This document shows, in pieces, positions 1 to 11,053 of a stretch of 11,053 nucleotides of DNA. A program made the position numbers and the translations under genes. The notes beneath the pieces were generated by a model that worked only from the letters and a program-made list of their open reading frames with translations, did not search any database and had not been told where the DNA came from. Position 1 is the stretch's first letter. Each line of letters opens with the position of its first letter. Source of the stretch: a virus. Taxonomy: Duplodnaviria; Heunggongvirae; Uroviricota; Caudoviricetes. The stretch covers positions 1 through 11,053 of IMG/VR virus record IMGVR_UViG_2541047882_000001; one strand, given 5' to 3'.

Positions 1-1014
1 CTAACACTCTGCATGGACATTTTGTGGATCTTTTTTGCTGATTTTTAACTTAATGAACTGAGGAACGCTTGCGTCAATTGTAGTGTGATATTGAAATAAG
101 GGGTATTTTCTATCACGATTATTGATTGAATAACTTATTATATCCTTCATAAGTAGCACAAAGTCAGTGGTGAAATTATATTCAAGTATCTCAACCATTT
201 TTAAATGAAAGTGCCAGTATGATTGTAGATATTTTTTTATATCCAATTCATCCGAAAATTTTGTTTTTAAGAATAAAATATATTCATCTTCACCGTGGGT
301 TGAGCACTGATAGAGTTTTTCAATATCTAAACGCTTTAGTCCATAAAGGTTGTGCAATAATTCTAATAGTTTTTCAATGCTATGTATATGGGTGTATAAC
401 TCTGTATAGTCATTAATTTCTTCTTTTTTAAATAGTTCAACTAGTTGGCACCAAATTAATTCTGCATTTTGTATGTAGTCCTTGGAAGCATCAAAATTAT
501 TATTAGTAGTTGAAGCATAAGGATAGCATTTACGATATGTAGAATAACAATTTTCAAATTCTAATTTTGCGTTCTTTTTTATCAAAGGAATGTCTAAAGA
601 TTCAAGGTGTTGTAATGCTTCTATAGTGTTTTTTCTATGGGTATAGAAAAAATCCACTTTGTTTTTCTTTTCTGCTTCTTTGATTTGTTTATCTGTTTGT
701 ATTGTTCGATGAATATTATTGACAACTACTCCCAGTGGAATCGATAAAGATAAAACAGCTAAAGGAAGTTTACTAATGTTTAGGAAATTATTAAATCCTT
801 CCGTATCGATTTGAACATTGTGACCATTCCATGCAACAAATCCGAGCAGAAAAAAACTAATTATTGGAATTGCCAGTGCGGCTTTGAATAATGGTTGATG
901 CGTAAGAGGTTCAGCATTCATCTTGAATGCATTTATCTTGAATAAATAACCCATGTAAACAACCACAAATAAAATGTTAAATAAAACGATGCATTGATTG
1001 ATTGTAAGGTTCAT
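1..1014 (-). CDS. Hypothetical membrane-anchored protein (337 aa): three predicted N-terminal TM helices plus a ~230-aa helical soluble domain of unknown function; AT-rich cargo gene directly downstream of the integrase
   Basis: Uninterrupted 337-codon ORF in very AT-rich DNA, where stop codons are otherwise frequent. ATG at 1014..1012 lies 6 nt after the int stop, with a GAG-containing SD-like stretch just upstream; the stop codon TAG is at 3..1. Hydrophobic segments: CIVLFNILFVVVYMGYLF, LFKAALAIPIISFFLLGFVAW, LPLAVLSLSIPLGVVV. I recognise no catalytic motif. Confidence 0.6.
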   Translation of the reverse strand: MNLTINQCIVLFNILFVVVYMGYLFKINAFKMNAEPLTHQPLFKAALAIPIISFFLLGFVAWNGHNVQIDTEGFNNFLNISKLPLAVLSLSIPLGVVVNNIHRTIQTDKQIKEAEKKNKVDFFYTHRKNTIEALQHLESLDIPLIKKNAKLEFENCYSTYRKCYPYASTTNNNFDASKDYIQNAELIWCQLVELFKKEEINDYTELYTHIHSIEKLLELLHNLYGLKRLDIEKLYQCSTHGEDEYILFLKTKFSDELDIKKYLQSYWHFHLKMVEILEYNFTTDFVLLMKDIISYSINNRDRKYPLFQYHTTIDASVPQFIKLKISKKDPQNVHAEC

Positions 1015-1020
1015 TTTTCT

Positions 1021-2034
1021 CTAAATTATTAATGATAAAGGATTTTTTGTTATTACATCTTCAAGATGCGTTGGCGCAAAGTGAGCATAGATCATAGTCA
1101 TTTTTATATCTGAATGGCCTAAAATCTCTTTAAGAACAAGTATGTTTCCGCCATTCATCATAAAGTGGCTGGCAAATGTATGTCGTAATACATGTGTACA
1201 CTGGCCTTCAGGCAGTACAATCCCCGCTTTAGCTACAGTACGCTCGAAAGTTTTACGGCACGGGGCAAACAACTGGCCTCGTTTTTTTGGTATCTCGTTA
1301 TAAAGCTCTTTTGAGATAGGTATAGAACGTACCTTTCTACTTTTCGTATTTTTGTAAGTGATACGGTATGGCGTAACTTGAGAGCCTTCTAGATTTTCCG
1401 CTTCACTCCACCTTGCACCGGTAGCAAGGCAAATCTTAGTGATGATGAGAACGTGCGGGCTATTAGATTCGGATAAATATTGTAAAAGAGTTTTGATTTC
1501 TTCTGAATAAAGAAAAGAAACCATTTTTTCATCAACTTTAAAGGTTGGAATTCCTGCCAATGGATTTGGAAGCGACCAATGGCCTAGTTTTTTTAGTGTA
1601 CCAAATACGGCAGATAGATAGCGTTGCTCATGATTTACTGTCCGTGGTTGTATCGGCATACAACGTCCATTTATATCCGGAATTTCACCCTTTAAGCGAC
1701 CTTCTCTGTATTGGCTGAAATCCGCCGCTGTGATTTGTGCTGCAATCGGATTTCCCATACCAGCACAAATACCTTTCAATTTCGACATCATGCGGTCGGC
1801 ATCTGCTAATGTTCGACCATATAGATCATGCCACTGCTCAATCAGATCTGATAAGCGTCGATTATCTTGCTTCTCACCCAGCCAGGGTTTGCCTTCCATT
1901 TCGCTGGCGATATATTTTTCATATGCCAGTGCTTCACCTTTCGTGGCGAATTTTTTACGAATACGCTTACCTTTCACCCCATTAGGGCGAAGATCGCACA
2001 ACCATTCACCGCTTTCGATTTTCCGAACTGCCAT
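1021..2034 (-). CDS. int: Phage tyrosine integrase, P2/186 family
   Basis: 337-aa ORF. The N-terminus (MAVRKIESGEWLCDLRPNGVKGKRIRKKF...) parallels the P2 Int N-terminus. The C-terminal catalytic region has LATGARWSEA (Arg box), HVLRHTFASHF (H-x-x-R) and a MIYAHF-like tyrosine motif. Start ATG overlaps the cI stop (TAATG). Confidence 0.9.
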   Translation of the reverse strand: MAVRKIESGEWLCDLRPNGVKGKRIRKKFATKGEALAYEKYIASEMEGKPWLGEKQDNRRLSDLIEQWHDLYGRTLADADRMMSKLKGICAGMGNPIAAQITAADFSQYREGRLKGEIPDINGRCMPIQPRTVNHEQRYLSAVFGTLKKLGHWSLPNPLAGIPTFKVDEKMVSFLYSEEIKTLLQYLSESNSPHVLIITKICLATGARWSEAENLEGSQVTPYRITYKNTKSRKVRSIPISKELYNEIPKKRGQLFAPCRKTFERTVAKAGIVLPEGQCTHVLRHTFASHFMMNGGNILVLKEILGHSDIKMTMIYAHFAPTHLEDVITKNPLSLII

Positions 2035-2609
2035 TACTCACTCACTAAGTATGTGGCCACAACCTTCCCAATCAATTGCACATCAGATACGTCGCAATCA
2101 ACTGGATATTTTCCCCAGTCAATCCGCAATTTGTTACCAGGAAGTAACGTCAATTCTTTGATGCTTTTCGTACCAGAATACTCAAGAAGGAACTTACCGT
2201 CCGTAACAGGGTAATCAGCGATATCTACGAAAAATCTCACTGAACTATCACTGATTATTTGAAGTTCACCTTTGTAGTTTGGGAGTATTGTCTTATCGAA
2301 AATTACGGATGCTTGGCGAACCATATCAGACCCTTCGATTTTATAGGCTGAGATTCGAGTGGTATCACTTGCCACCTGATCAAATCTAACGCCATCACCA
2401 GTGGTTAGCCAGTAGATAGAAGCTCCTGTTTCTAGAGCACAAAGTAGTACTAAATCAGCAGGAAAGTTGTCACGCATGATACGTGTACTTAAAGCACTTG
2501 GAGACATTCCAAGATAATTTGCTAACTGCATTCTGGATGTAAAACCATAAGCCTCACACACCCTTTCGATTGCTTCGCGTGCACCTGTCTTGATGTTGTA
2601 AGTTGTCAT
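2034..2609 (-). CDS. cI: 186-type CI-like phage repressor (N-terminal HTH, C-terminal oligomerisation domain)
   Basis: 191 aa from the internal Met at 2609 (MTTYNIKTG...). HTH-like segment GFTSRMQLANYLGMSPSALSTR. Size matches 186 CI (~190 aa). Lies directly upstream of int on the same strand and divergent from cox, the P2/186 lysogeny-module arrangement. The 38 upstream in-frame codons of the full ORF overlap the operator region and look non-protein-like, so the 2609 start is preferred. Confidence 0.75.
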   Translation of the reverse strand: MTTYNIKTGAREAIERVCEAYGFTSRMQLANYLGMSPSALSTRIMRDNFPADLVLLCALETGASIYWLTTGDGVRFDQVASDTTRISAYKIEGSDMVRQASVIFDKTILPNYKGELQIISDSSVRFFVDIADYPVTDGKFLLEYSGTKSIKELTLLPGNKLRIDWGKYPVDCDVSDVQLIGKVVATYLVSE

Positions 2610-2760
2610 GTTTGTAGTTCGCAACTGTTGACAAACGACAATTTTAAAAATAATCTCCGAATTGTTTCGAATGTAGATATTGATAATTGTCGTTTGTAGA
2701 TTATTAACAACTATTGTCACCAACGCTCATTAGTGACAAACGAAGGAGGAATTTTGCCGT
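2602..2760. promoter_or_regulatory. Divergent cI / cox promoter-operator region with repeated TTGTC/GACAA half-sites
   Basis: Rightward promoter candidate: TTGACA (2628..2633), 17-nt spacer, TAATCT (2651..2656). Perfect 13-bp inverted repeat ACAAACGACAATT (2631..2643) / AATTGTCGTTTGT (2686..2698). Direct repeat TGACAAACGA at 2629..2638 and 2734..2743. Inverted repeat TTGTCAC (2714..2720) / GTGACAA (2733..2739). A further TTGTCA overlaps the cI start codon (2603..2608). Confidence 0.5.
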
Positions 2761-2949
2761 ATGCAAACTAAAGCTGCAACACATTCAGAAAGCAGGTGGG
2801 TACCTCTGAAAACGTTTTGCGACAGGGTTGAAATAAAACTGCGCACGGGACGTTACTGGGTACACACTGGCAAACTCAAAATCAAACCTAAAAGCAAACC
2901 GAAAGAACATGTGTTTGTAGATTGGCTTGCGTGGAACAGTGAAAAGTAA
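2761..2949 (+). CDS. cox: Cox/Apl-like small regulator and excisionase-type protein
   Basis: 62-aa ORF divergent from cI-int, with AAGGAGG SD upstream. C-terminal EHVFVDWLAWN resembles the EYWVYLPAWN segment of P2 Cox as I recall it. Position between cI and cII matches Apl/Cox in 186/P2. Confidence 0.55.
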   Translation: MQTKAATHSESRWVPLKTFCDRVEIKLRTGRYWVHTGKLKIKPKSKPKEHVFVDWLAWNSEK

Positions 2950-2992
2950 TCATCACTTTTAGTGATTTTGAGATTGGGATGGAAGAAAAACA

Positions 2993-3496
2993 ATGTTTGA
3001 TTACCAGACCTCTAAACATGCGCACTTTGATGCGGCTTGCCGAGCATTTGCAATTGAGCACAATCTTGAAGATGTGGCCGCTGCCGTTGGTATGAGGCCG
3101 CAGATCCTGCGCAACAAACTGAACCCAGCACAACCGCACCGCCTGACCTGTGATGAGCTTTTGGCTATCACGGATTACACCGAAGATGCGCGTTTGCTTG
3201 ATGGAATGTTAGGTCAGATTAACTGCCTTCCATCCGTGCCGGTGAACAATGCCACAGAAGGCAACATGCAGTTGTGCGCACTGAGTGCCACAGCCAGTGT
3301 GGGCGCGATTGCTGGGGAAGCCGTATCAACTGGCCATATGACTGCCGCCCGCCGTACTCAAATTCTGGATCGTGCCCGCGATGCAATCCGTAGCTTATCC
3401 GTGCTGGCTTATACCGTTGAAAGCCGTATTCACTCTGCGCCTGTTCTGGCCGCTGCGGTGGATCTGGCCACAACCAACGCCACCGGCCTGATGTGA
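2993..3496 (+). CDS. cII: Phage regulatory protein CII family (186 CII-like)
   Basis: 167 aa, close to the ~169 aa of 186 CII. Contains the VGMRPQILRNKLNP motif characteristic of this family as I recall it. Sits immediately after the cox/apl-like gene. Confidence 0.65.
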   Translation: MFDYQTSKHAHFDAACRAFAIEHNLEDVAAAVGMRPQILRNKLNPAQPHRLTCDELLAITDYTEDARLLDGMLGQINCLPSVPVNNATEGNMQLCALSATASVGAIAGEAVSTGHMTAARRTQILDRARDAIRSLSVLAYTVESRIHSAPVLAAAVDLATTNATGLM

Positions 3497-3505
3497 GGGA
3501 ACACC

Positions 3506-3679
3506 ATGAAAGCGTTTGTCACTTACCTGAAAAAAGAATCACCAGACATGCAGTTGCCGAGTGGTTCAACGGGATGGATAGAACTTCCGAACGGTCAGCG
3601 CTGGAACCCTGGCCACATGTACAAATTCAATGGCCAGCAGCCGCGTCGCCCATGGTGGCGTCGTCTGATGGGGCTATAG
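3506..3679 (+). CDS. Small hypothetical protein (57 aa), absent from the supplied ORF track
   Basis: ATG at 3506 preceded by GAGGGA SD (3495..3500). Translation MKAFVTYLKKESPDMQLPSGSTGWIELPNGQRWNPGHMYKFNGQQPRRPWWRRLMGL, stop TAG at 3677..3679. Different frame from the overlapping GTG-initiated 3493..3936 track ORF, whose first part looks non-coding. Confidence 0.4.
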   Translation: MKAFVTYLKKESPDMQLPSGSTGWIELPNGQRWNPGHMYKFNGQQPRRPWWRRLMGL

Positions 3680-3687
3680 GGGGCGTT

Positions 3688-4087
3688 ATGGCGATTAGCC
3701 AGGAACAGCAAAAGCGCGGGTTGGAGCATTGTAAAAGAATGCGTCTTCAGATCAACCCAGCCTACAGCGATGCGGGGGACTGGTGGGACAACTTGACACC
3801 AGAGTGGCGCGGCGTGGTGCTTCATGCTGCTGCTGTTACTTCAGGTGCCGGGGTATTTAAAGCCCACTTAAGCAAATGCTGCTGGCAGGAACTTTATGAA
3901 CGTCTGGGATACCCTGCGTCTGGCCGTGGATTTTAATCTGTTCGTGAAGGGCGAATTTAAAACCCGTACGGAAGATTACCGGCAACTGGGGGAATACTGG
4001 GAATCACTGGGTGGTACCTGGGGCGGGCGCTTCAAATCCAGACCGGATGGCAATCATTTCAGTCTGGAACATAACGGGGTGCGCTGA
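3688..4087 (+). pseudogene. Probable inactivated M15-family peptidase (endolysin-like) gene split across two frames
   Basis: Frame 1: ATG 3688 with AGGGGG SD, 82 codons ending at 3936, containing a QELYERLG segment. Frame 2: 3896..4087 encodes ...RLAVDF...LGGTWGGRFKSRPDGNHFSLEH, matching the A-x-D and WGG...D-x-x-HF-x-LE signatures of the VanY/M15 (LAS) zinc peptidase C-terminal half. The expected S-x-H-x-x-G segment with the first zinc-ligand His is missing at the frame junction (about 3910..3922). The combined ~400 nt is the size of a ~130-aa M15 endolysin. Confidence 0.4.
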
Positions 4088-4425
4088 TGAGCAGCGGGCA
4101 GTGGCTGGTTGTGGTGGCGCTGGCGTTTGTCTGGGGCTGGCTGACCGCTGACTGGCGGCGTGACAGCTTAGAGCTGGCAATCAATACAGCGGCGCAGGTG
4201 GCCGGTAATGAATCGCGAAAAGTAATGCAGGGCATTGCCAGTGATTCGGCCAGAGTGCTGGAAGATAAACTGGAGGCGTTAAAAAATGTGGCACCGCGTG
4301 AAATACGCACGGAAATACTTAAGCCTGTTTTTACTAATCGCTGCCTGTCTGATGAGTTTGTCAGCATGTACAACAGCGCCGCAGCCGGTACCGAACGTGC
4401 GTTATCAGGAAAACCTGAAAACTAA
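4087..4425 (+). CDS. lysB: LysB-like i-spanin (Rz-equivalent lysis protein)
   Basis: 112 aa. N-terminal TM anchor LVVVALAFVWGWL followed by a charged, helical periplasmic region. Start overlaps the upstream stop (TGATG). Contains the embedded/overlapping lysC gene, as in P2. Confidence 0.7.
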   Translation: MSSGQWLVVVALAFVWGWLTADWRRDSLELAINTAAQVAGNESRKVMQGIASDSARVLEDKLEALKNVAPREIRTEILKPVFTNRCLSDEFVSMYNSAAAGTERALSGKPEN

Positions 4426-4585
4426 ATGCACCACGCAGCTGCCGCGCCTGAACGGTACGACAGGAAAAGACGCAACGGAATTACTGACAATTTATCCTGA
4501 AATTTATGGGCAGTGTGCTGCGCGTCATAATCAGTTAGTGGACGAAATTAATTTAAGAGAGAGTATGAGTGATGGAACAAATTAA
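4286..4585 (+). CDS. lysC: LysC-like o-spanin (Rz1-equivalent outer-membrane lipoprotein)
   Basis: 99 aa in an alternate frame overlapping the 3' third of lysB. GGAGG SD 9 nt upstream. Lipoprotein signal: basic n-region MWHRVKYARKY, hydrophobic core, lipobox L-S-A-C, then a Pro-rich mature N-terminus CTTAPQPVP. Confidence 0.65.
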   Translation: MWHRVKYARKYLSLFLLIAACLMSLSACTTAPQPVPNVRYQENLKTKCTTQLPRLNGTTGKDATELLTIYPEIYGQCAARHNQLVDEINLRESMSDGTN

Positions 4586-4829
4586 ACTGTGTGTTTGTGG
4601 TGTAGATATTGTTTTTGAGCCAAATCAGACCGCCTACAACAAATTTATTAATGAAATGGCGATGGATAATAAAGTTGCCCCGGCACATAACTATTTGACA
4701 CGAATTGTGGCAACGGAAAGTAAAGAAGCACTGGCAGAAGTATTAAAACGTCCGGGTGCAGCGCTTCAACTGGTTGGCAAAGTAAATGATATTTATGCGC
4801 CTGAACTGGAAATTGAAGTAAAAAACTGA
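4572..4829 (+). CDS. E: Phage tail assembly chaperone gpE (P2 E-like)
   Basis: 85 aa from ATG 4572 (the track ORF starts 3 nt earlier at GTG). Immediately upstream of the tape-measure gene. Ends at a slippery heptamer, the classic E/E-prime arrangement. Confidence 0.7.
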   Translation: MEQIKLCVCGVDIVFEPNQTAYNKFINEMAMDNKVAPAHNYLTRIVATESKEALAEVLKRPGAALQLVGKVNDIYAPELEIEVKN

Positions 4830-5020
4830 CAAAGCGAGTCCATGAAATTGAAAGGAATGGACTCGAACAATATTTAATTCTCCGCCGTCATTATTTACCG
4901 CATGGTCAGGATTCCGTTGATGATATCGCCGCCGCTATCTGGCTGGACAATCGTCACTGGGAATATACCGGAATAGCCGTGGCCAATGGTGTGGCAAAAG
5001 CATTTAAAGGCACTGAATGA
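4820..5020 (+). CDS. E-prime extension of the E+E-prime -1 frameshift product (slippery site A_AAA_AAC at 4820..4826)
   Basis: From AAAAAAC, the -1 frame is open for 66 codons: KKLTKRVHEIERNGLEQYLILRRHYLPHGQDSVDDIAAAIWLDNRHWEYTGIAVANGVAKAFKGTE. It ends at TGA 5018..5020, overlapping the T start codon (ATGA). The RRHYLPHGQ...IWLD...ANG segment resembles the conserved P2 GpE extension as I recall it. Confidence 0.65.
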   Translation, partial: KKLTKRVHEIERNGLEQYLILRRHYLPHGQDSVDDIAAAIWLDNRHWEYTGIAVANGVAKAFKGTE

Positions 5021-6864
5021 AACAATTAGATTTTACATTGAGCCTGATTGATAAATTATCCCGCCCGTTAAAACAGGTGCAGGGTAACGTCACTGGCTTT
5101 GCGGAAAAATCAAAAGCGGCCTTTATGCAGATCGGTGGCGGTGTACTGGCGCTGGCTGGTACCGGGATGGCGATCAAAGGCGCGTTATCACCGGCAATTG
5201 AAATGTATGACGCGCTGAATGATGCCGCCGCAAAAGGGATTGAGGATTCCGCGCTTAAGACAGTTCAGCGTGATGCCCTGCGCTTCAGTACAACCTATGG
5301 CGCCAGCGCGGTGGAGTTCGTTAAATCCACGGAAAATATTAACGCTTCCATTGCGGGGCTGACGGGTAATGAATTGCCGAAGGTGACGAAAGTCGCCAAT
5401 ACCCTGGCTTTTGCGCTTAAGTCCACAGCGGCGGACACGGCGGAATTTATGGGGCAGATGTTCGGTAACTTTTCAGCCGATGCCGCCAGACTGGGCAAGG
5501 TTGAATTTGCCGAGCAGCTGGCAGGCAAGATGGTTTATATGCGCAAAACCTTTGGCACAGAAATGGCTACTATCAAGGATTTGATGGAAGGTGCGCGTGG
5601 CGTCGGGACTAACTACGGCGTGGGACTGGATGAACAGCTGGCCGTGCTGGGGCAACTTCAGCGGACACTGGGAACGGAAGCCAGCAGCGCCTATGAAGGG
5701 TTTATGACCGGTGCGATTGATGGCGCTAAAAAGCTGGGGCTGTCCTTTACTGACTCCACCGGCAAAATGCTGTCCATGCCTGAAATGCTGATCAAGTTGC
5801 AGGGCAAATATGGCAAAAGCCTTGAAGGGAACCTGAAAGCCCAGGCGGAACTGGATGCAGCCTTTGGTGACAGTTCGGCAGTGGTTAAACAGCTTTACGG
5901 CAATGTCGCGTTACTTCAGCGGAACATCACCGAACTGGGCGGCGCGGACGGTCTGAAGCGTACCCAGGAAATGGCACAAAAAATGGTTAAGCCGTGGGAT
6001 CGCTTTGTGCAAATCCTGAAAGCCATTCAGACCGTGATCGGGCTGACGCTGATCCCGGTGCTGTATCCGGTTCTGAATCGCCTGGCTGATATGGGGCAGA
6101 CCTTTGCCCGCTGGATGCAGCTATTTCCTAACATTGCCCGTGTGATTGGTTATGCGTCGATGGCACTCCTGAGCTTTGCCGCCGTGGGTGCGGTGGCCAA
6201 TATCGTGATGGGGGTTTCCAGATTCATCATGATGGGATTGCGCGGGATCTGGGTGGCGTTAACGGCGGTTACGAAAATCTACACGGCCACTGTCTGGCTG
6301 GCGCAAATGGCGGTAATCGCCTGGAATACCACGCTGAAGTTTTTGCGCGGTGCGTTACTGGCGGTACGCATGGCCGCAATAATGGCCGGAATTGGTATCA
6401 ACCTGATGAGCTGGCCGATCCTGCTTGTGATTGGTGCCATTGCACTGCTGGTTGCCGGTTGTTATCTGCTGGTTAAGCACTGGGACACGATAAAAACAGC
6501 GGTGGTGAATACCGAAGCCTTCCAGACATGTGCCGCCGTGGTGAAATGGCTGGCGGGGATCTTTGCTTCAGCCTGGCAATATATCAGTGAAGGATGGAAC
6601 AGCTTTATTTCTTTGCTGACAGGATTTTCACCGTTTGAGGCGTTAAAGGGGATGGCCTCCGACATTATGTCGCTGTTTGATAATGTCTGGAAGTCAATCA
6701 AAGGGGGATTTCTTAAGTCGTGGAACTGGATTGTTCAGAAACTGAATAAAATTCCCGGCGTGGATATTTCACTGGCCAGTGAAACCACGCAGCCATTAAC
6801 CGGAAATACACTGTCAACGGGTGGTGATTTAAAAGGTGTGGATAACTGTCCATATTGGCAGTGA
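5017..6864 (+). CDS. T: Phage tail tape measure protein (P2 gpT-like), probably C-terminally truncated or frameshifted
   Basis: 615-aa ORF. N-terminal region parallels P2 gpT (MKQLDFTLSLIDKLSRPLKQ... versus the gpT N-terminus as I recall it). Long helical N-terminal half, central hydrophobic/Gly-Ala-rich stretch, Trp-rich C-terminal part. Shorter than P2 gpT (~815 aa), and an overlapping ORF continues in another frame to 7042. Confidence 0.85.
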   Translation: MKQLDFTLSLIDKLSRPLKQVQGNVTGFAEKSKAAFMQIGGGVLALAGTGMAIKGALSPAIEMYDALNDAAAKGIEDSALKTVQRDALRFSTTYGASAVEFVKSTENINASIAGLTGNELPKVTKVANTLAFALKSTAADTAEFMGQMFGNFSADAARLGKVEFAEQLAGKMVYMRKTFGTEMATIKDLMEGARGVGTNYGVGLDEQLAVLGQLQRTLGTEASSAYEGFMTGAIDGAKKLGLSFTDSTGKMLSMPEMLIKLQGKYGKSLEGNLKAQAELDAAFGDSSAVVKQLYGNVALLQRNITELGGADGLKRTQEMAQKMVKPWDRFVQILKAIQTVIGLTLIPVLYPVLNRLADMGQTFARWMQLFPNIARVIGYASMALLSFAAVGAVANIVMGVSRFIMMGLRGIWVALTAVTKIYTATVWLAQMAVIAWNTTLKFLRGALLAVRMAAIMAGIGINLMSWPILLVIGAIALLVAGCYLLVKHWDTIKTAVVNTEAFQTCAAVVKWLAGIFASAWQYISEGWNSFISLLTGFSPFEALKGMASDIMSLFDNVWKSIKGGFLKSWNWIVQKLNKIPGVDISLASETTQPLTGNTLSTGGDLKGVDNCPYWQ

Positions 6865-7042
6865 GAGTATCAACGCCCTGACCATGATGCTGGATACCAT
6901 TGATTTACTGGCAGATCTGGCGCAGCAATGCGCGAGCCATTCGCACCCCACCGTTGGGACGCCAACCAATGCCGCCGCGTTCACACAGACGGCGACGAAA
7001 GCCGGGCAGACCCGGAGCAAGTACCAGGGGATCATTGCTTAA
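6836..7042 (+). pseudogene. Possible out-of-frame continuation of the tape-measure gene (remnant)
   Basis: 68-codon ORF in the +1 frame relative to T, overlapping the last 29 nt of T. It ends where GC-normal phage DNA gives way to AT-rich DNA. No downstream tail genes U or D are present. Confidence 0.3.
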
Positions 7043-7139
7043 TGCTGGTATTCATGTGATAAGTTGAGACGTTCTGGACTTCCTGATGGCTGTAGCTCTG
7101 TTGTTGGGTAGTCCAGAAAAATTCGAAATAAAATGGGTA

Positions 7140-7661
7140 TCAAGTAGTGGTAATTGTATGGCTTTTGCGGGTTATATAAACGCTATTGGCGGGTACGTCT
7201 CTGTTAACGAATGACATTGCGCCAATTGTCACGTTATCACCAATGGTTAGATCATCACCGATGATGCACGAATTTGCACCAATCTCCACATTGTCTCCGA
7301 TCCTGATGGCTTTGATTCCCTCAACCGTTTTTAATCCAATTGTTGTGTTTTGTCGGATACGCACATTCTTACCAATCACAGCCTGGGGGCAAATGACTAT
7401 TCCAACGAAATGATAAATTTTGAATTTTTCCCCTATCTGTGCCCCCAACCCAATATCAGTATTGTATTTTGAAACAAGTCTCCTATGGATTCTTCGCGCC
7501 CATTTCACTCTTGCTCTCCCACCCTGGCAGTAAAGGCAATTCGCTATTCTCCACCAACACATGAACCTGTATCCGGGCTGTCTCCAGCAACGTAGTATGA
7601 TTCTTCTCCATGAGAATTTTTTACTGTTGCTCAGTATGTCCGCGCACAATAACTGCTTCAT
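7140..7661 (-). CDS. Hexapeptide-repeat (left-handed beta-helix) acetyltransferase, serine O-acetyltransferase CysE/WcaB-like
   Basis: 173 aa from ATG 7661, which has a GAGGAA SD immediately upstream (the track ORF offers an earlier Met at 7709). Tandem imperfect hexapeptide repeats IGKNVRIRQNTTIG, IGDNVEIGANSCIIGDDLTIGDNVTIGAMSFV, then DVPANSVYI. N-terminal RIANCLYCQG segment typical of the small SAT-like family. Lies in AT-rich DNA. Confidence 0.75.
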   Translation of the reverse strand: MKQLLCADILSNSKKFSWRRIILRCWRQPGYRFMCWWRIANCLYCQGGRARVKWARRIHRRLVSKYNTDIGLGAQIGEKFKIYHFVGIVICPQAVIGKNVRIRQNTTIGLKTVEGIKAIRIGDNVEIGANSCIIGDDLTIGDNVTIGAMSFVNRDVPANSVYITRKSHTITTT

Positions 7662-8481
7662 TTCCTCGTAGTGAGATATTTTGCTGCTGCTCATAAATTG
7701 TCCGTCCAAATAATCCTGACGGTTATCGTAACATGGGAATGGTCTGATTTTCTGCTAACAGCACAACACTAGGCTATGTGGTTCGGTCTGATAGTGGGCT
7801 TCTTCATCCAAAATGATTTAGTTGGGTTACCAACACAAATCTATTTCTCACATCGTCATAGGCGTCACCAGACGCATTTTAAACCCTTTAGTAACAAACC
7901 CTACCCCGCGCACCAAGTGTAAAAGATCCGAAGCGTGGCGTGGCGCTGGTAGGGTCATATGATGGCGAAATAAATCTTTCGCAGACAAAAACGGCGCTAC
8001 ACCGCACCCGCCTGCGGTTTCTGGATCTGGAAATTTTTTCAGTTTTATTTTTCTACAAACCAGACCGCCAGACCGCACCATTACTGGCGGCTTTGCAGAT
8101 AATCAGAACTGAAATGATTGAAAAGAATTTCAGTGTTTTTCACTTTCATGGATCTGTGGAGGATCGAATACAAAATGTAACCAGCAGAAAAATAAGGGGA
8201 AATAATTTTTTTGTGAGTGGGAAGGATCGTTTTTGTTTTCTGGTTGTTTTCGTCGTAGAAAAGCCGAGGCCAGATTTAGCAAGGCATAGGGACAATTAGA
8301 AGGTTCATAGAAAACTGAAAAAACTGCATGCATGTCGTGGAAACTAGCGAGCTAACAATTGCATCGAAATCTAATTTTAATCTTGGAACTTGAGAAAACT
8401 TTTGTCAAATTAGTTGTCGCTTTTTAGTTGTGGATAACCTTCCGATGTTTACTTGGCAGAGCTTACATTAAGGCATTCGAT

Positions 8482-9600
8482 ATGACTGAAAAATTCACCG
8501 CAATTTTGTTAGATACGAGTATCTACGATCAGTACGGATTAAAGCTTGAGAAAGGACTGCTGGGTAAGCTTTCCCAGTTCAGCAGAACCCCGACAACGTT
8601 TTTGATACCGGATGTAATTTACAATGAAGTTAAAAATCATCTTGAAAGAAAAATCAAGACATCACGTGGCTCCCTTGAGAAAGCTTTCGAAGAAGCTGGC
8701 GATCATCTTTTTTTTGATGGAAGCGAACTAAATGATGCAAGAAAAACATTGATTGAAAGCAGAGAAGTTGAAGGATTAGGAAAGAGCAGATTAGACAGAT
8801 TTGTTGGCGTAACAGATGCGAAGGTTCTAACTACAGGGGATTATGTTTCGGTACCTGAACTCCTTGAACGATACTTCTCTTCTGAAGCTCCTTTCGCAGA
8901 TACAGGTAAGAAAAAAAATGAGTTTCCCGATGCAATAACATTAATGGCCGTCCAAGCCTGGGCTAAAGAGAATGGTGAAAATGTTCTTGCTGTAGCAAGA
9001 GATGACGACTGGCAGAGATTTTGTATTGATGCTGAGAATTTGCACTATGAACCTGACTTATCAAACGCTTTAGCACACTTCAATGAAGAAACCGCACCTT
9101 ATGAACTAATTGATAACTTACAAAAAGCACTTGCTGAAGGACAAGCCGGTAAATTCTTGCATGATGTTGCTGTACACCTTGAGTCAACCTTTGAAGGATT
9201 TGCACCAGAACAAGAGGCAGATTCATATTTATACTGGGAGGCTGACGGATGCTCAGGTGGATTTGAAGATTTTGAGTTTACAGATAACCACTTCACTGTC
9301 ATCGACAAGGATGAAAACTGGGTTGTTATAGAAGCATTTGCAGACATTTCACTTTACGCAGAAGGTGATTTCTCCCTATCGGTTTACGATTCATTCGACA
9401 AAGACCATGCTTACATGGGGTCAATTACCAAGCGAGCCGAGGAAACATATACATCCAGAATACTTATCACAATCTCCGGAGACTTATCAGGTTCTATAGA
9501 TGATTTGACCGTTGACGATGTGGAAGTGATCGAGCGTCCAACGTCGATGGATTTTGGGGAGCTTGAATTAGAGTATGAGCCTGACGAGCAAGACTTGTAA
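8482..9600 (+). CDS. PIN-like nuclease domain protein (DUF4935-like N-terminus) with acidic C-terminal domain of unknown function
   Basis: 372 aa from ATG 8482 (AAGG SD 8 nt upstream; the track ORF begins at an upstream TTG). N-terminal ILLDTSIY (PIN Asp-Thr motif), FLIPDVIYNEV, then FPDAITLMAVQAW ... VLAVARDDDW acidic cluster. C-terminal ~170 aa highly acidic (EADGCSGGFEDFEFTDNHF ... DDLTVDDVEVIE ... EYEPDEQDL). AT-rich composition. Confidence 0.65.
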   Translation: MTEKFTAILLDTSIYDQYGLKLEKGLLGKLSQFSRTPTTFLIPDVIYNEVKNHLERKIKTSRGSLEKAFEEAGDHLFFDGSELNDARKTLIESREVEGLGKSRLDRFVGVTDAKVLTTGDYVSVPELLERYFSSEAPFADTGKKKNEFPDAITLMAVQAWAKENGENVLAVARDDDWQRFCIDAENLHYEPDLSNALAHFNEETAPYELIDNLQKALAEGQAGKFLHDVAVHLESTFEGFAPEQEADSYLYWEADGCSGGFEDFEFTDNHFTVIDKDENWVVIEAFADISLYAEGDFSLSVYDSFDKDHAYMGSITKRAEETYTSRILITISGDLSGSIDDLTVDDVEVIERPTSMDFGELELEYEPDEQDL

Positions 9601-9690
9601 CAACTATGATTAGGCACTATCGCTGTCGCCATTTTGTCGCCAACTCGATTGCAGTTTCGTTGTAACTAATTGAATTTAATCTTTTTTATT

Positions 9691-9724
9691 TTCAGGCAAC
9701 AAAAAACCCATCATCTTTAGAGCA
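9691..9724. terminator. Bidirectional intrinsic terminator between the convergent PIN-like and Abi-like genes
   Basis: A6 (9691..9696), perfect 8-bp stem CCCATCAT (9697..9704) / ATGATGGG (9714..9721) with a 9-nt loop, then TTT (9722..9724). The A-run and T-run flanks allow termination in both directions. Confidence 0.6.
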
Positions 9725-9743
9725 TGATGGGTTTATAACTTGC

Positions 9744-10553
9744 TTATTCTTTTTTTTCATCCCACGATTCAAGAATAAACATAGTTAGTGTATGTGCAGC
9801 ATTGATGGCTAATCGTGCGTGTCGGGGCTTGAGATTGTAAATTTTTCGTCCTGCGCCATGAGCTGAACTCGCATGAGTTCTTAGCGAGCCGATACCATCG
9901 GTGAGAGAATATAAGCCGCTCAAAATGCGTTTTAAGTCCTCATCTTCTACCGCTTTAGTGTCAAGACCTAAATGTTCACGAACGGTCTTCCACAAGCCCT
10001 GCAAATCCTGCTTCGCAGGAATCGGTAGGTTTTCATCTGCGATAAAAATTTTAAATGTTGATTCTAATATATTACAGGCTGCTGATACTGCTTCTCTTGG
10101 GTCAGTATGCAAGTTTTCTAAAGCTCTTGCGAATTCCATTTCTACTGCTGGAGTATTACGTTTCTGGATAGCTTCTTTCAAGGAAAGGGATGCTAGTGAT
10201 GCTCCATCAGTAATGTAACCGCCAGTCACATAGTTCAGCCCATAACGACCAAGTAGTTCCGGCATTTTTTTAACAAACTCGACTTTCTTTTTTTCCCACT
10301 CATAGTATGGATTGGCGGGTAACTCTGACTCCATATAGGTTTCGATTAAGCGACCAAGTAAAACTAATGGTTCATCAGATTCTTTATTAATACGCCTTAA
10401 CCATTCGAGAGCTTTAACGTGCTTAGATCCTTCGGGTGGTTCCCCTGGCGCATCAGCATAGGCAAACAAACTATCCAAACTAGCATGGGTTTCAGTGCTA
10501 GCAACGAAGTCAGCTACAACAGATATTACAGGTTGAGGTATTGGCCGTCCCAT
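9744..10553 (-). CDS. Abortive infection family protein (Abi_C-like C-terminal domain)
   Basis: 269 aa; ATG 10553 with GGAG SD 6 nt upstream. C-terminal LYSLTDGIGSLRTHASSAHGAGRKIYNLKPRHARLAINAAHTLTMFILESW matches my recollection of the Abi_C signature (R-x-x ... HG ... PRHARLA-x-NAA). AT-rich gene immediately downstream of ssrA. Confidence 0.55.
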   Translation of the reverse strand: MGRPIPQPVISVVADFVASTETHASLDSLFAYADAPGEPPEGSKHVKALEWLRRINKESDEPLVLLGRLIETYMESELPANPYYEWEKKKVEFVKKMPELLGRYGLNYVTGGYITDGASLASLSLKEAIQKRNTPAVEMEFARALENLHTDPREAVSAACNILESTFKIFIADENLPIPAKQDLQGLWKTVREHLGLDTKAVEDEDLKRILSGLYSLTDGIGSLRTHASSAHGAGRKIYNLKPRHARLAINAAHTLTMFILESWDEKKE

Positions 10554-10610
10554 ATCTACTCCATCAGCGGGTCAATTTTGAACTTAGTGGACGCAAAGTG
10601 GACATTGCAT

Positions 10611-10648
10611 AAAAAAAGGGACTACGTTTTCACGTAACCCCTTGTTTT
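10611..10648 (-). terminator. ssrA intrinsic terminator
   Basis: On the minus strand, about 10 nt after the encoded CCA end: GGGGTTACGT / ACGTAGTCCC imperfect 10-bp stem (8 pairs) with GAAA loop, followed by T7. Confidence 0.55.
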
Positions 10649-10651
10649 AAT

Positions 10652-11014
10652 TGGTGGAGCTGGCGGGAGTTGAACCCGCGTCCGAAATTCCTACATCCTC
10701 GGTACTACATGCTTAGTCAGTCTTTACATTCGCTTGCCAGCTGCGGACGGACACGCCACTAACAAACTAGCCTGATTAAGTTTTAACGCTTCAACCCCAG
10801 GCAGGGCTTCCACGCGATCTCTTTTGGGTTTGACCTCTCTTGATCCCCGTCCTAAGAGCGGAGGCTAGGGAGAGAGGGCTCTAAGCAGGTTATTAAGCTG
10901 CTAAAGCGTAGTTTTCGTCGTTTGCGACTATTTTTTGCGGCTTTTTACGAGGCCAACCGCCCCTCGGCATGCACCTTGGGTTTCGCAAATCCCGTCGAAT
11001 CCAGAATCAGCCCC
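10652..11014 (-). ncRNA. ssrA: tmRNA (transfer-messenger RNA, SsrA), 363 nt
   Basis: The reverse complement begins GGGGCTGATTCTGGATTCGACGGG and ends GGTTCAACTCCCGCCAGCTCCACCA (tRNA-Ala-like acceptor/T-arm with encoded CCA). Internal tag frame GCA AAC GAC GAA AAC TAC GCT TTA GCA GCT TAA encodes ANDENYALAA-stop (10925..10893). Matches enterobacterial ssrA as I recall it. Confidence 0.95.
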
Positions 11015-11020
11015 AATGTG

Positions 11021-11053
11021 TAAAGGTAAGTATACCAGATTTATGAGCGCCAT
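11021..11053 (-). promoter_or_regulatory. Probable ssrA promoter region (partial, runs off the window)
   Basis: TATACT -10-like hexamer on the minus strand (plus coordinates 11029..11034), about 15-20 nt upstream of the mature tmRNA 5' end. No -35 could be judged because the window ends. Confidence 0.3.

Follow-up and report, generated by a model that had tools for sequence, protein, structure and literature searches.

An AbiJ/Abi_C-family gene next to ssrA in a P2/186-like prophage remnant

Why should a gene for a putative abortive-infection protein stand immediately behind ssrA, the gene of transfer-messenger RNA (tmRNA), and what might its product do there? The question is raised by a stretch of 11,053 nucleotides (nt) of caudoviral DNA (IMG/VR record IMGVR_UViG_2541047882_000001, positions 1 to 11,053), called the window in what follows. 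An open reading frame (ORF) on its minus strand, at 9744..10553, had been assigned in a preliminary description to an Abi_C-like protein. We find that this gene, referred to below as the Abi gene, is a new member of the known Abi_C/AbiJ family, a family-level annotation that is already public, and that it is the first cargo gene beside the phage attachment site, attP, of ssrA-integrating P2/186-like phages. Our reading, to which we give a probability of about 75%, is that it encodes an AbiJ/Abi_C single-protein anti-phage factor and acts as a lysogenic-conversion gene, or 'moron', of these phages. Its one unusual feature is that the N-terminal module is uncatalogued and also occurs in TIR effectors.

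The gene and its family

The gene and its immediate signals are the following.

9744..10553, minus strand: AbiJ/Abi_C-family gene, an intact ORF of 269 amino acids (aa) with an ATG start
10559..10562, minus strand: Shine-Dalgarno sequence GGAG, 5 nt 5′ of the ATG, read directly from the sequence and kept in related loci
9701..9734, minus strand: the gene's own terminator, a hairpin (GGGTTTTTTGTTGCCTG) and U-run directly after the stop codon, found by folding

The ORF is intact and 269 aa long, as had been claimed, and the peptides quoted from it (RTHASSAHGAGRK and PRHARLAINAAHTL, YYEWEKKK, GGYITDGASL, and the Pro-rich start MGRPIPQPV) all lie within its translation. The proposed Abi_C identity was borne out by a Pfam search. 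The Abi_C profile PF14355 matched residues 187-262 over profile positions 3-83 of 83, with E=8.4e-22 and a score of 77.5 bits for a gathering score of 24; the threshold of 1e-3 that had been suggested as a check is cleared by 19 orders of magnitude. The AbiJ model of PADLOC was also matched (9.3e-17), with residues 156-265 facing model positions 170-278 of 281. This profile aligns C-terminally only, and full-length orthology to lactococcal AbiJ is not what was found. The PHROGs collection returned a single match, phrog_23253 (function unknown), over residues 125-268, and an NCBIfam scan of the protein gave no match.

A search of a large protein database yielded 1740 homologues. The best 120 of them were almost all 268-297 aa long with a coverage of at least 88%, and all carried PF14355; relatives at ~60% identity among these 120 included Acinetobacter, Vibrio and Myxococcota proteins. 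When one genome per species was scanned, a relative was found at 165 loci, of which the best 80, at 51-83% identity, were kept. These belong to Gamma-, Beta- and Deltaproteobacteria, Planctomycetota, Hydrogenedentota, Kiritimatiellales and one cyanobacterium. The subfamily is very widespread, at more than 50% identity across Gammaproteobacteria, Betaproteobacteria, Myxococcota, Planctomycetota and others. Closer to the window, the 90% cluster of the protein has members on more than 1000 Salmonella contigs, and an identical protein stands at NCBI as an 'abortive infection family protein' of Escherichia coli. The gene finding by itself is ordinary, that of a correctly recognised family member already so named in public.

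Two loci carry a second family protein. In L038 (Vibrio), tandem paralogues occupy 1051-1866 and 2022-2843, the second copy being 35% identical to the query. In L050 (Herbaspirillum; 4001-4795 and 5173-6126), a second Abi_C protein with another N-terminal region lies directly downstream. Public records, among them GenBank LR597638 (phage ESSI2_ev040) and older ones, misname the protein 'ATP-dependent RNA helicase HrpA'; because the protein has no helicase domain, this name is a propagated misannotation.

The Abi gene is under purifying selection. In pairwise codon comparisons synonymous divergence (dS) was saturated and nonsynonymous divergence (dN) amounted to 0.08-0.21, while dN/dS was 0.2 against a 98% relative; the N-terminal module evolves 2 to 3 times faster than the C-terminal half. 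The G+C content of the gene is about 40%, compared to about 50-55% for the phage structural genes. The hairpin that follows the stop codon folds with -19.3 kcal/mol (z = -4.8), and none of 200 shuffled sequences was as stable. Having its own hairpin and U-run directly after the stop codon, the gene is a monocistronic cassette, and with the terminator of ssrA on the other side it is framed by terminators at both ends.

Prophage context and the ssrA junction

The features between the gene and ssrA are needed at this point.

10652..11014, minus strand: ssrA (tmRNA), with tag ANDENYALAA, found by ARAGORN and by Rfam RF00023 (295.8 bits)
10652..10697, minus strand: attachment (att) core, the last ~45 nt of ssrA, with copies at attR and, in attP-like junctions, between int and the gene
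10606..10643, minus strand: intrinsic ssrA terminator on the phage-supplied side of attL, a 12-pair stem and T-run found by a terminator scan and by folding
10586..10603, minus strand: direct repeat GTCCAC(T), twice on the sense strand (AGTGGAC twice on the plus strand), in 11-bp phase at -50/-39 from the ATG

The window is the attL-to-int span of a decayed P2/186-like (Peduoviridae) prophage. Read along the ssrA strand, it holds ssrA, the AbiJ-family gene, a PIN_12 ORF (opposite strand), an acetyltransferase gene, a truncated tape-measure gene (opposite), lysis genes (opposite), cII and cox (opposite), cI, int (1021-2034) and a 337-aa ORF. What remains of the prophage is ~10.4 kb, devoid of genes for replication, capsid, baseplate and tail fibres; within 2700-7140 of the window lies a tape-measure gene that has been shortened to 615 aa and borders directly on the cargo block. 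The draft chromosome L092, from E. coli, was identical to the window over the aligned 1,207 nt, from ssrA through the terminator of the Abi gene. It has the gene order of the window throughout, and its housekeeping flank is 100% identical to complete E. coli genomes. In L092 the attR site is found at 20637-20680, about 84 nt beyond window position 1, as a displaced ssrA 3′ fragment, and its sequence beyond CCACCA differs from that of attL. The ssrA fragment at attR has a 1-nt deletion (CAGCCCACCA), and ahead of it stand direct repeats similar to TGTTAGCGAC, three or four in number and in ~10-bp phase.

The gene had been described as the first one after the ssrA terminator, on the same strand, and this placement holds: ssrA, 99% identical to that of E. 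coli, is located by ARAGORN and Rfam, the hairpin with its T-run follows at 10616-10643, and the gene lies 98 nt downstream of ssrA. Other loci point to how this arrangement came about. In L090, L093 and L094, other E. coli assemblies whose Abi protein is 100% identical, smpB, ssrA, the gene and variable cargo are succeeded by tail genes, with the tail-fibre and baseplate set complete; L005, L007 and L008 have the same layout with an 87% relative. L002 and L004 contain an attP-type junction, in the order int, ssrA 3′ copy, terminator, repeats, gene, so that the terminator hairpin is here again 3′ of an ssrA 3′ copy. Finally, Escherichia phage ESSI2_ev040 (Peduoviridae) carries a 77% homologue directly after int. 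The gene is prophage cargo: it lies within att-delimited DNA and has a homologue in a phage genome.

Since the phage keeps the gene beside attP, integration into ssrA puts the gene, together with the phage terminator, right behind ssrA. Integration into ssrA is also the habit of Fels-2 and SopE-phi (PMC3448106). The position after ssrA is not a family property, because it results from a prophage that integrates into ssrA with the gene beside attP. Over the family, tmRNA was found upstream of the gene in 1 of the 60 species-level loci that were scanned for tRNA and tmRNA genes.

The gene is kept in several independent prophage remnants (window/L092, L004, L006 and L009), and the locus illustrates how prophages may leave working defence genes at ssrA after the phage itself has decayed. 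In L004, L006 and L009, an 87% homologue and a 224-aa downstream neighbour form a two-gene remnant, which has as its neighbours an IS3-family transposase gene and kduI/iol of the host; L004 has in addition a complete, more recent prophage inserted ahead of this remnant.

The two AGTGGAC copies of the upstream region are at 10586-10592 and 10597-10603, exactly as first reported. The window contains the word 3 times, a number attained in 11 of 200 shuffles, hence the count alone is unremarkable. The 11-bp-phased pair is kept at the same position in L002, L004, L005, L090, L091 and L011, and is present even at a locus where protein identity falls to 74%. The plus-strand sequences of the sites are TAGTGGACG and AAGTGGACA, and AAGTGGACA agrees at 7 of 8 positions with the consensus tgTGGaCa of P2-type integrase (Int) arm sites (PMC3448106). 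In ESSI2_ev040, TGGCGACA is found twice at -46/-35 from the ATG, and this is the motif of the int-proximal repeats of the same phage, which supports an arm-site role. Judging from these motifs, the AGTGGAC pair probably represents Int arm-type sites of attL, and could also regulate the gene. Two observations are not accounted for by this assignment: the P arm at attR has TGTTAGCGAC-like repeats and no GTGGAC, and a pair of TGGCGACA sites lies behind the gene.

9624..9642, minus strand: second pair, TGGCGACA twice in 11-bp phase, 102/113 nt after the stop codon

This second pair and the hairpin at 9701-9734 share homology with the att region that precedes the homologue in ESSI2_ev040 (L001 7860-7975). 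They look like the relic of a second att arm, and any of these sets of repeats may be the one that the integrase uses. Speculatively, capture of the gene may have separated an older P′ arm from the core.

The gene could be transcribed from a weak promoter of its own, or be read through from ssrA or from int. The AGTGGAC pair falls where a promoter spacer would lie. A TAAGTT spotted by eye as a weak -10 had no convincing -35, and no promoter is claimed there. The ssrA promoter is among the strongest of the cell, and it is a possibility that read-through from it expresses the gene specifically in the integrated state.

Whether the gene has a constant companion was examined by comparing the ORFs within 2.5 kb at 73 of the 80 species-level loci, those in which the gene could be located. 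No neighbour family recurred outside closely related enterobacterial loci. Downstream of the identical protein, L090 has the PIN_12 ORF and the acetyltransferase gene, and L091 three other ORFs. With no conserved neighbour, the Abi gene looks like a single-gene system.

Predicted HEPN domain and N-terminal module

The protein appears to be built of two parts.

9759..10190, minus strand: predicted HEPN domain, residues ~122-265, of which Pfam Abi_C covers 187-262 only
9858..9881, minus strand: predicted catalytic motif R225-T226-H-A-S-S-A-H232 (R-phi-x5-H), followed by G233, from the alignment
10194..10553, minus strand: N-terminal module, residues 1-~120, with five helices and a beta-hairpin

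An AlphaFold2 model was computed with 20 homologues as input and reached a mean predicted local distance difference test score (pLDDT) of 82. Its C-terminal part is a helical bundle, with helices between residues 125 and 263. Compared with HEPN structures, this bundle scored 12.1 with 2hsb, 11.4 with 1ufb, 11.0 with the sacsin HEPN, 10.1 with the HEPN toxin 5yep, 9.2 with AbiA, 8.4 with Csm6, 7.7 with HepS of a Salmonella prophage, and 6.8 with AbiV. These comparisons place a HEPN fold at about residues 122-265, which means that the Pfam model covers the second half of the fold only; the modelled bundle has the helical arrangement expected of HEPN domains. Searches of PDB sequences with the protein, the family profile and the N-terminal profile gave only spurious repeat-protein matches, meaning that no solved relative can be recognised by sequence. 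A HEPN nature of AbiJ itself was proposed in 2013 (PMC3710099), and a 2026 review supports it with structure predictions (PMC13064643).

Within the alignment of the 20 homologues (60-87% identity), R225, T226, H227, A228, S229, A231, H232 and G233 were invariant, and S230 varied. The motif agrees with the R-phi-x(3-6)-H pattern of HEPN ribonucleases (RNases) as defined in PMC13590631.

The first ~180 residues had been described as unassignable. This remains true for ~120 of them; residues ~122-186, on the other hand, correspond to the first helices of the predicted HEPN fold. In the model, the module has helices at 7-20, 23-32, 44-58, 62-74 and 85-102, and a beta-hairpin at 107-115 (Y108..G111-G112). 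Conserved motifs are IPxPVI, THA..L..LF, APGEPPEGSK and WLRRINKE. When residues 1-134 were searched against 1.84 billion cluster representatives, 384 proteins were retrieved at E<=1e-3. Abi_C was detected (E<=1e-3) in 32 of the 54 matches of at least 200 aa, or 33 of 55 when the window protein is counted. In 6 proteins a TIR domain follows the module instead: TIR_2 in P0129, P0136, P0247 and P0182, and a CAP12/Pycsar-type TIR in P0158 and P0198; an alignment-wide tally gives seven TIR matches. In a joint alignment of the HEPN and TIR proteins, I5, P6, P8, I10, H23, L29, F30, P36, P40, K44, K47, W51, Y108 and G112 were invariant. Their invariance in both effector types marks the module, together with its hairpin, as a discrete domain that effectors exchange. 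Most homologues of P0136 match its TIR half only, indicating that the module-TIR fusion is rare. One module-TIR protein sits in an integrase-linked island.

The module is absent from the domain collections. No Pfam model, AbiJ_NTD3, NTD4 and NTD5 included, matched it in the 55 module-bearing proteins (E<=1e-3), and the AbiJ-NTD3, NTD4 and NTD5 models did not match the window protein at E<=1. Scans of the N-terminal region with NCBIfam, PHROGs and PADLOC found nothing, and a Foldseek search of the N-terminal model against viral structures gave no hit better than E=0.7. This absence has a consequence for surveys, which count such proteins as lacking an N-terminal domain (NTD). In the survey that accompanies SadR (PMC13590631), discussed below, the 'no NTD' class comprises 2,257 of 2,815 proteins, and by CD-search the proteins with this module fall in that class. 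The nearest published description is that of AbiJ-NTD2 (PMC3710099), which the passages on this domain present as ~100 aa, mostly helical, with a conserved strand by helix 1, and fused to AbiJ-HEPN, Mrr or TIR. By description only, the module resembles it, with the IPxPVI segment before helix 1 and with HEPN and TIR fusions.

The N-terminal model may resemble death-fold structures (FADD, CRADD and NLRC4), and scored 5.2 with the bacterial death-like domain 8ss1 and 4.4 with the bacterial CARD 9frr. These scores are modest for a small helical bundle and count against a firm call. The module profile retrieved nothing relevant from PDB sequences at E<=10, no Death or CARD Pfam match was found in the 55 module-bearing proteins, and in the passages of PMC3710099 on AbiJ-NTD domains no death-fold resemblance is stated. 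In bacterial death-like adaptor systems the domain comes in paired copies, one of them borne by a partner protein from the same locus (PMC8195603); here no neighbour recurred in the 73 loci, and a tandem paralogue was present in L038 only. We regard the likeness, which comes from a predicted model and is suggestive, as a lead and not a result. That the module is a death-fold-like domain swapped between HEPN and TIR effectors, acting via trigger-induced higher-order assembly, seems to us rather unlikely. MyD88 consists of a death domain and a TIR domain; if the idea were true, the family would be a prokaryotic one-chain counterpart of such death-domain-plus-effector immune proteins. Knowledge of what the module senses, and of whether it assembles as death domains do, would account for the activation of a large part of the Abi_C proteins, and for the use of the same module to drive TIR effectors.

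Proposed function, alternatives and known systems

From characterised relatives and from general HEPN knowledge, we infer an endoribonuclease that works by abortive infection. By analogy, the C-terminal HEPN domain would be a metal-independent endoribonuclease using R225 and H232. The protein would stay silent until a superinfecting phage is sensed, and would then be activated through the N-terminal module; cleavage of RNA would sacrifice the infected cell, halt the growth of the phage and so protect the lysogen population. The ~120-residue module would be the regulatory or sensing part, possibly an assembly part, and would be exchangeable, with HEPN here and TIR elsewhere. The RNase activity, the defence phenotype and the abortive-infection outcome are all put forward by analogy. 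With 269 aa and no partner gene, the protein offers a compact test case.

Several points weigh against this anti-phage reading. The scan for sigma-70-like promoters between the ssrA terminator and the ATG found none, which makes expression in the lysogen uncertain. The gene was not found in 5,426 complete E. coli genomes, at megablast sensitivity, and a benefit, if any, is therefore not general in E. coli. Residues 230-237, the catalytic loop, form the lowest-confidence stretch of the model. SadR and lactococcal AbiJ, the characterised relatives, are distant and have other N-terminal regions, and no published experimental test of the subfamily with this N-terminal module was found.

One alternative concerns the role of the module only. 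It might be a death-fold-like homotypic assembly domain rather than a sensor, in which case activation would come from higher-order oligomers that juxtapose HEPN (or TIR) domains, and sensing would take place elsewhere. We consider it unlikely, while leaving it some weight.

A second alternative is that the protein is chiefly an addiction or stabilisation toxin of the HEPN type, restrained by its N-terminal domain or by an antitoxin that escaped notice, and that it serves to retain the prophage remnant and not to ward off phages; this is in our view very unlikely. HEPN toxin-antitoxin pairs have a conserved adjacent antitoxin gene, such as an MNT-type antitoxin, or a repeat RNA. The 73 loci showed no such conserved gene, and the region 9400-11053 contains no tandem-repeat RNA of the type III antitoxin kind. 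The downstream neighbours differ between L090 and L091 despite identical proteins, and the characterised relatives act against phages and plasmids.

A function in trans-translation, for instance processing or regulating ssrA RNA, which the direct same-strand adjacency to ssrA, the lack of a separate consensus promoter and the predicted RNase nature of the protein could have suggested, is largely refuted and was rejected on genomic context, as the att site explains the adjacency, the gene follows int and an ssrA 3′ copy in attP-like junctions, ESSI2_ev040 carries the gene behind an intergenic region without the ssrA core, tmRNA is upstream in a single one of the 60 loci, and a strong terminator separates the two genes.

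The single-protein anti-phage reading is the one that we retain. Other genes of the window are listed here.

8428-9600, plus strand: PIN_12 ORF (PF16289, E=2.9e-32), 390 aa, also called as 372 aa
7140-7709, minus strand: hexapeptide-repeat acetyltransferase, serine/WcaB-type O-acetyltransferase-like (phrog_2154, 3.4e-59)
1-1014, minus strand: 337-aa ORF with 29% G+C, between int and attR, its start 6 nt past the stop codon of int

The PIN_12 ORF is convergent with the Abi gene, in the same low-GC cargo block. It had no PADLOC match, and could be an independent defence or toxin candidate. It was considered as an obligate partner of the Abi protein and ruled out, given that L091, with the identical Abi protein, carries other genes at this place. 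The acetyltransferase may be a conversion gene that modifies a surface polysaccharide; in ESSI2_ev040 a 'serine acetyltransferase' also follows the Abi homologue. The 337-aa ORF has a hydrophobic N-terminus and a sole match, phrog_17460 (function unknown), and occupies the 'integrase-to-att' cargo position described for P2-like phages.

P2-like prophages are known for defence hotspots, in which variable low-GC cargo occupies fixed positions (PMC9122126; PMC13586616), and minor hotspots beside the P2-like att site have been reported (PMC13586616). The words 'AbiJ' and 'Abi_C' are absent from the main texts of both papers. Compared to these hotspots, the att core lies here between int and the gene, so that after integration the gene is found at the opposite end of the prophage, next to ssrA. 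Another prophage-borne HEPN defence protein is HepS of the Salmonella Gifsy-1 prophage, which PDB entry 9oik, by its title, shows in complex with the phage lambda J tail tip; it is a member of another HEPN family and shares no N-terminal module with the Abi protein.

The founding Abi of the family is AbiJ (Abi-859) of Lactococcus lactis (PMC13064643; PMC3710099), listed as 'AbiJ' in PADLOC and DefenseFinder. The window protein shares with it the HEPN family, over the C-terminal ~110 residues, and the single-gene Abi-type organisation. It differs in that the N-terminal two-thirds of the AbiJ profile are unmatched, and lactococcal AbiJ is plasmid-borne in a Gram-positive host.

A close parallel is with SadR, an Abi_C-domain RNase of Staphylococcus aureus (PMC13590631, 2026). 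Its N-terminus is unrelated or unclassified, its host is Gram-positive, and its carrier is SCCmec or the rlmH locus rather than a P2-like prophage. RNase activity and defence have been demonstrated for SadR, whereas for the window protein they are predicted by analogy. In the SadR motif, RNEYGDAH, the substitutions R225A, N226A and H232A abolish RNA degradation and phage defence (PMC13590631). For both AbiJ and SadR, escape mutants map to phage single-strand annealing proteins (PMC13064643; PMC13590631). Like SadR, the window protein has a C-terminal Abi_C/HEPN domain whose R-phi-x5-H motif carries identical residue numbers (R225, phi226 and H232), falls in the 'no NTD' class of CD-search, and is the product of a single gene that a mobile element carries next to a conserved integration site.

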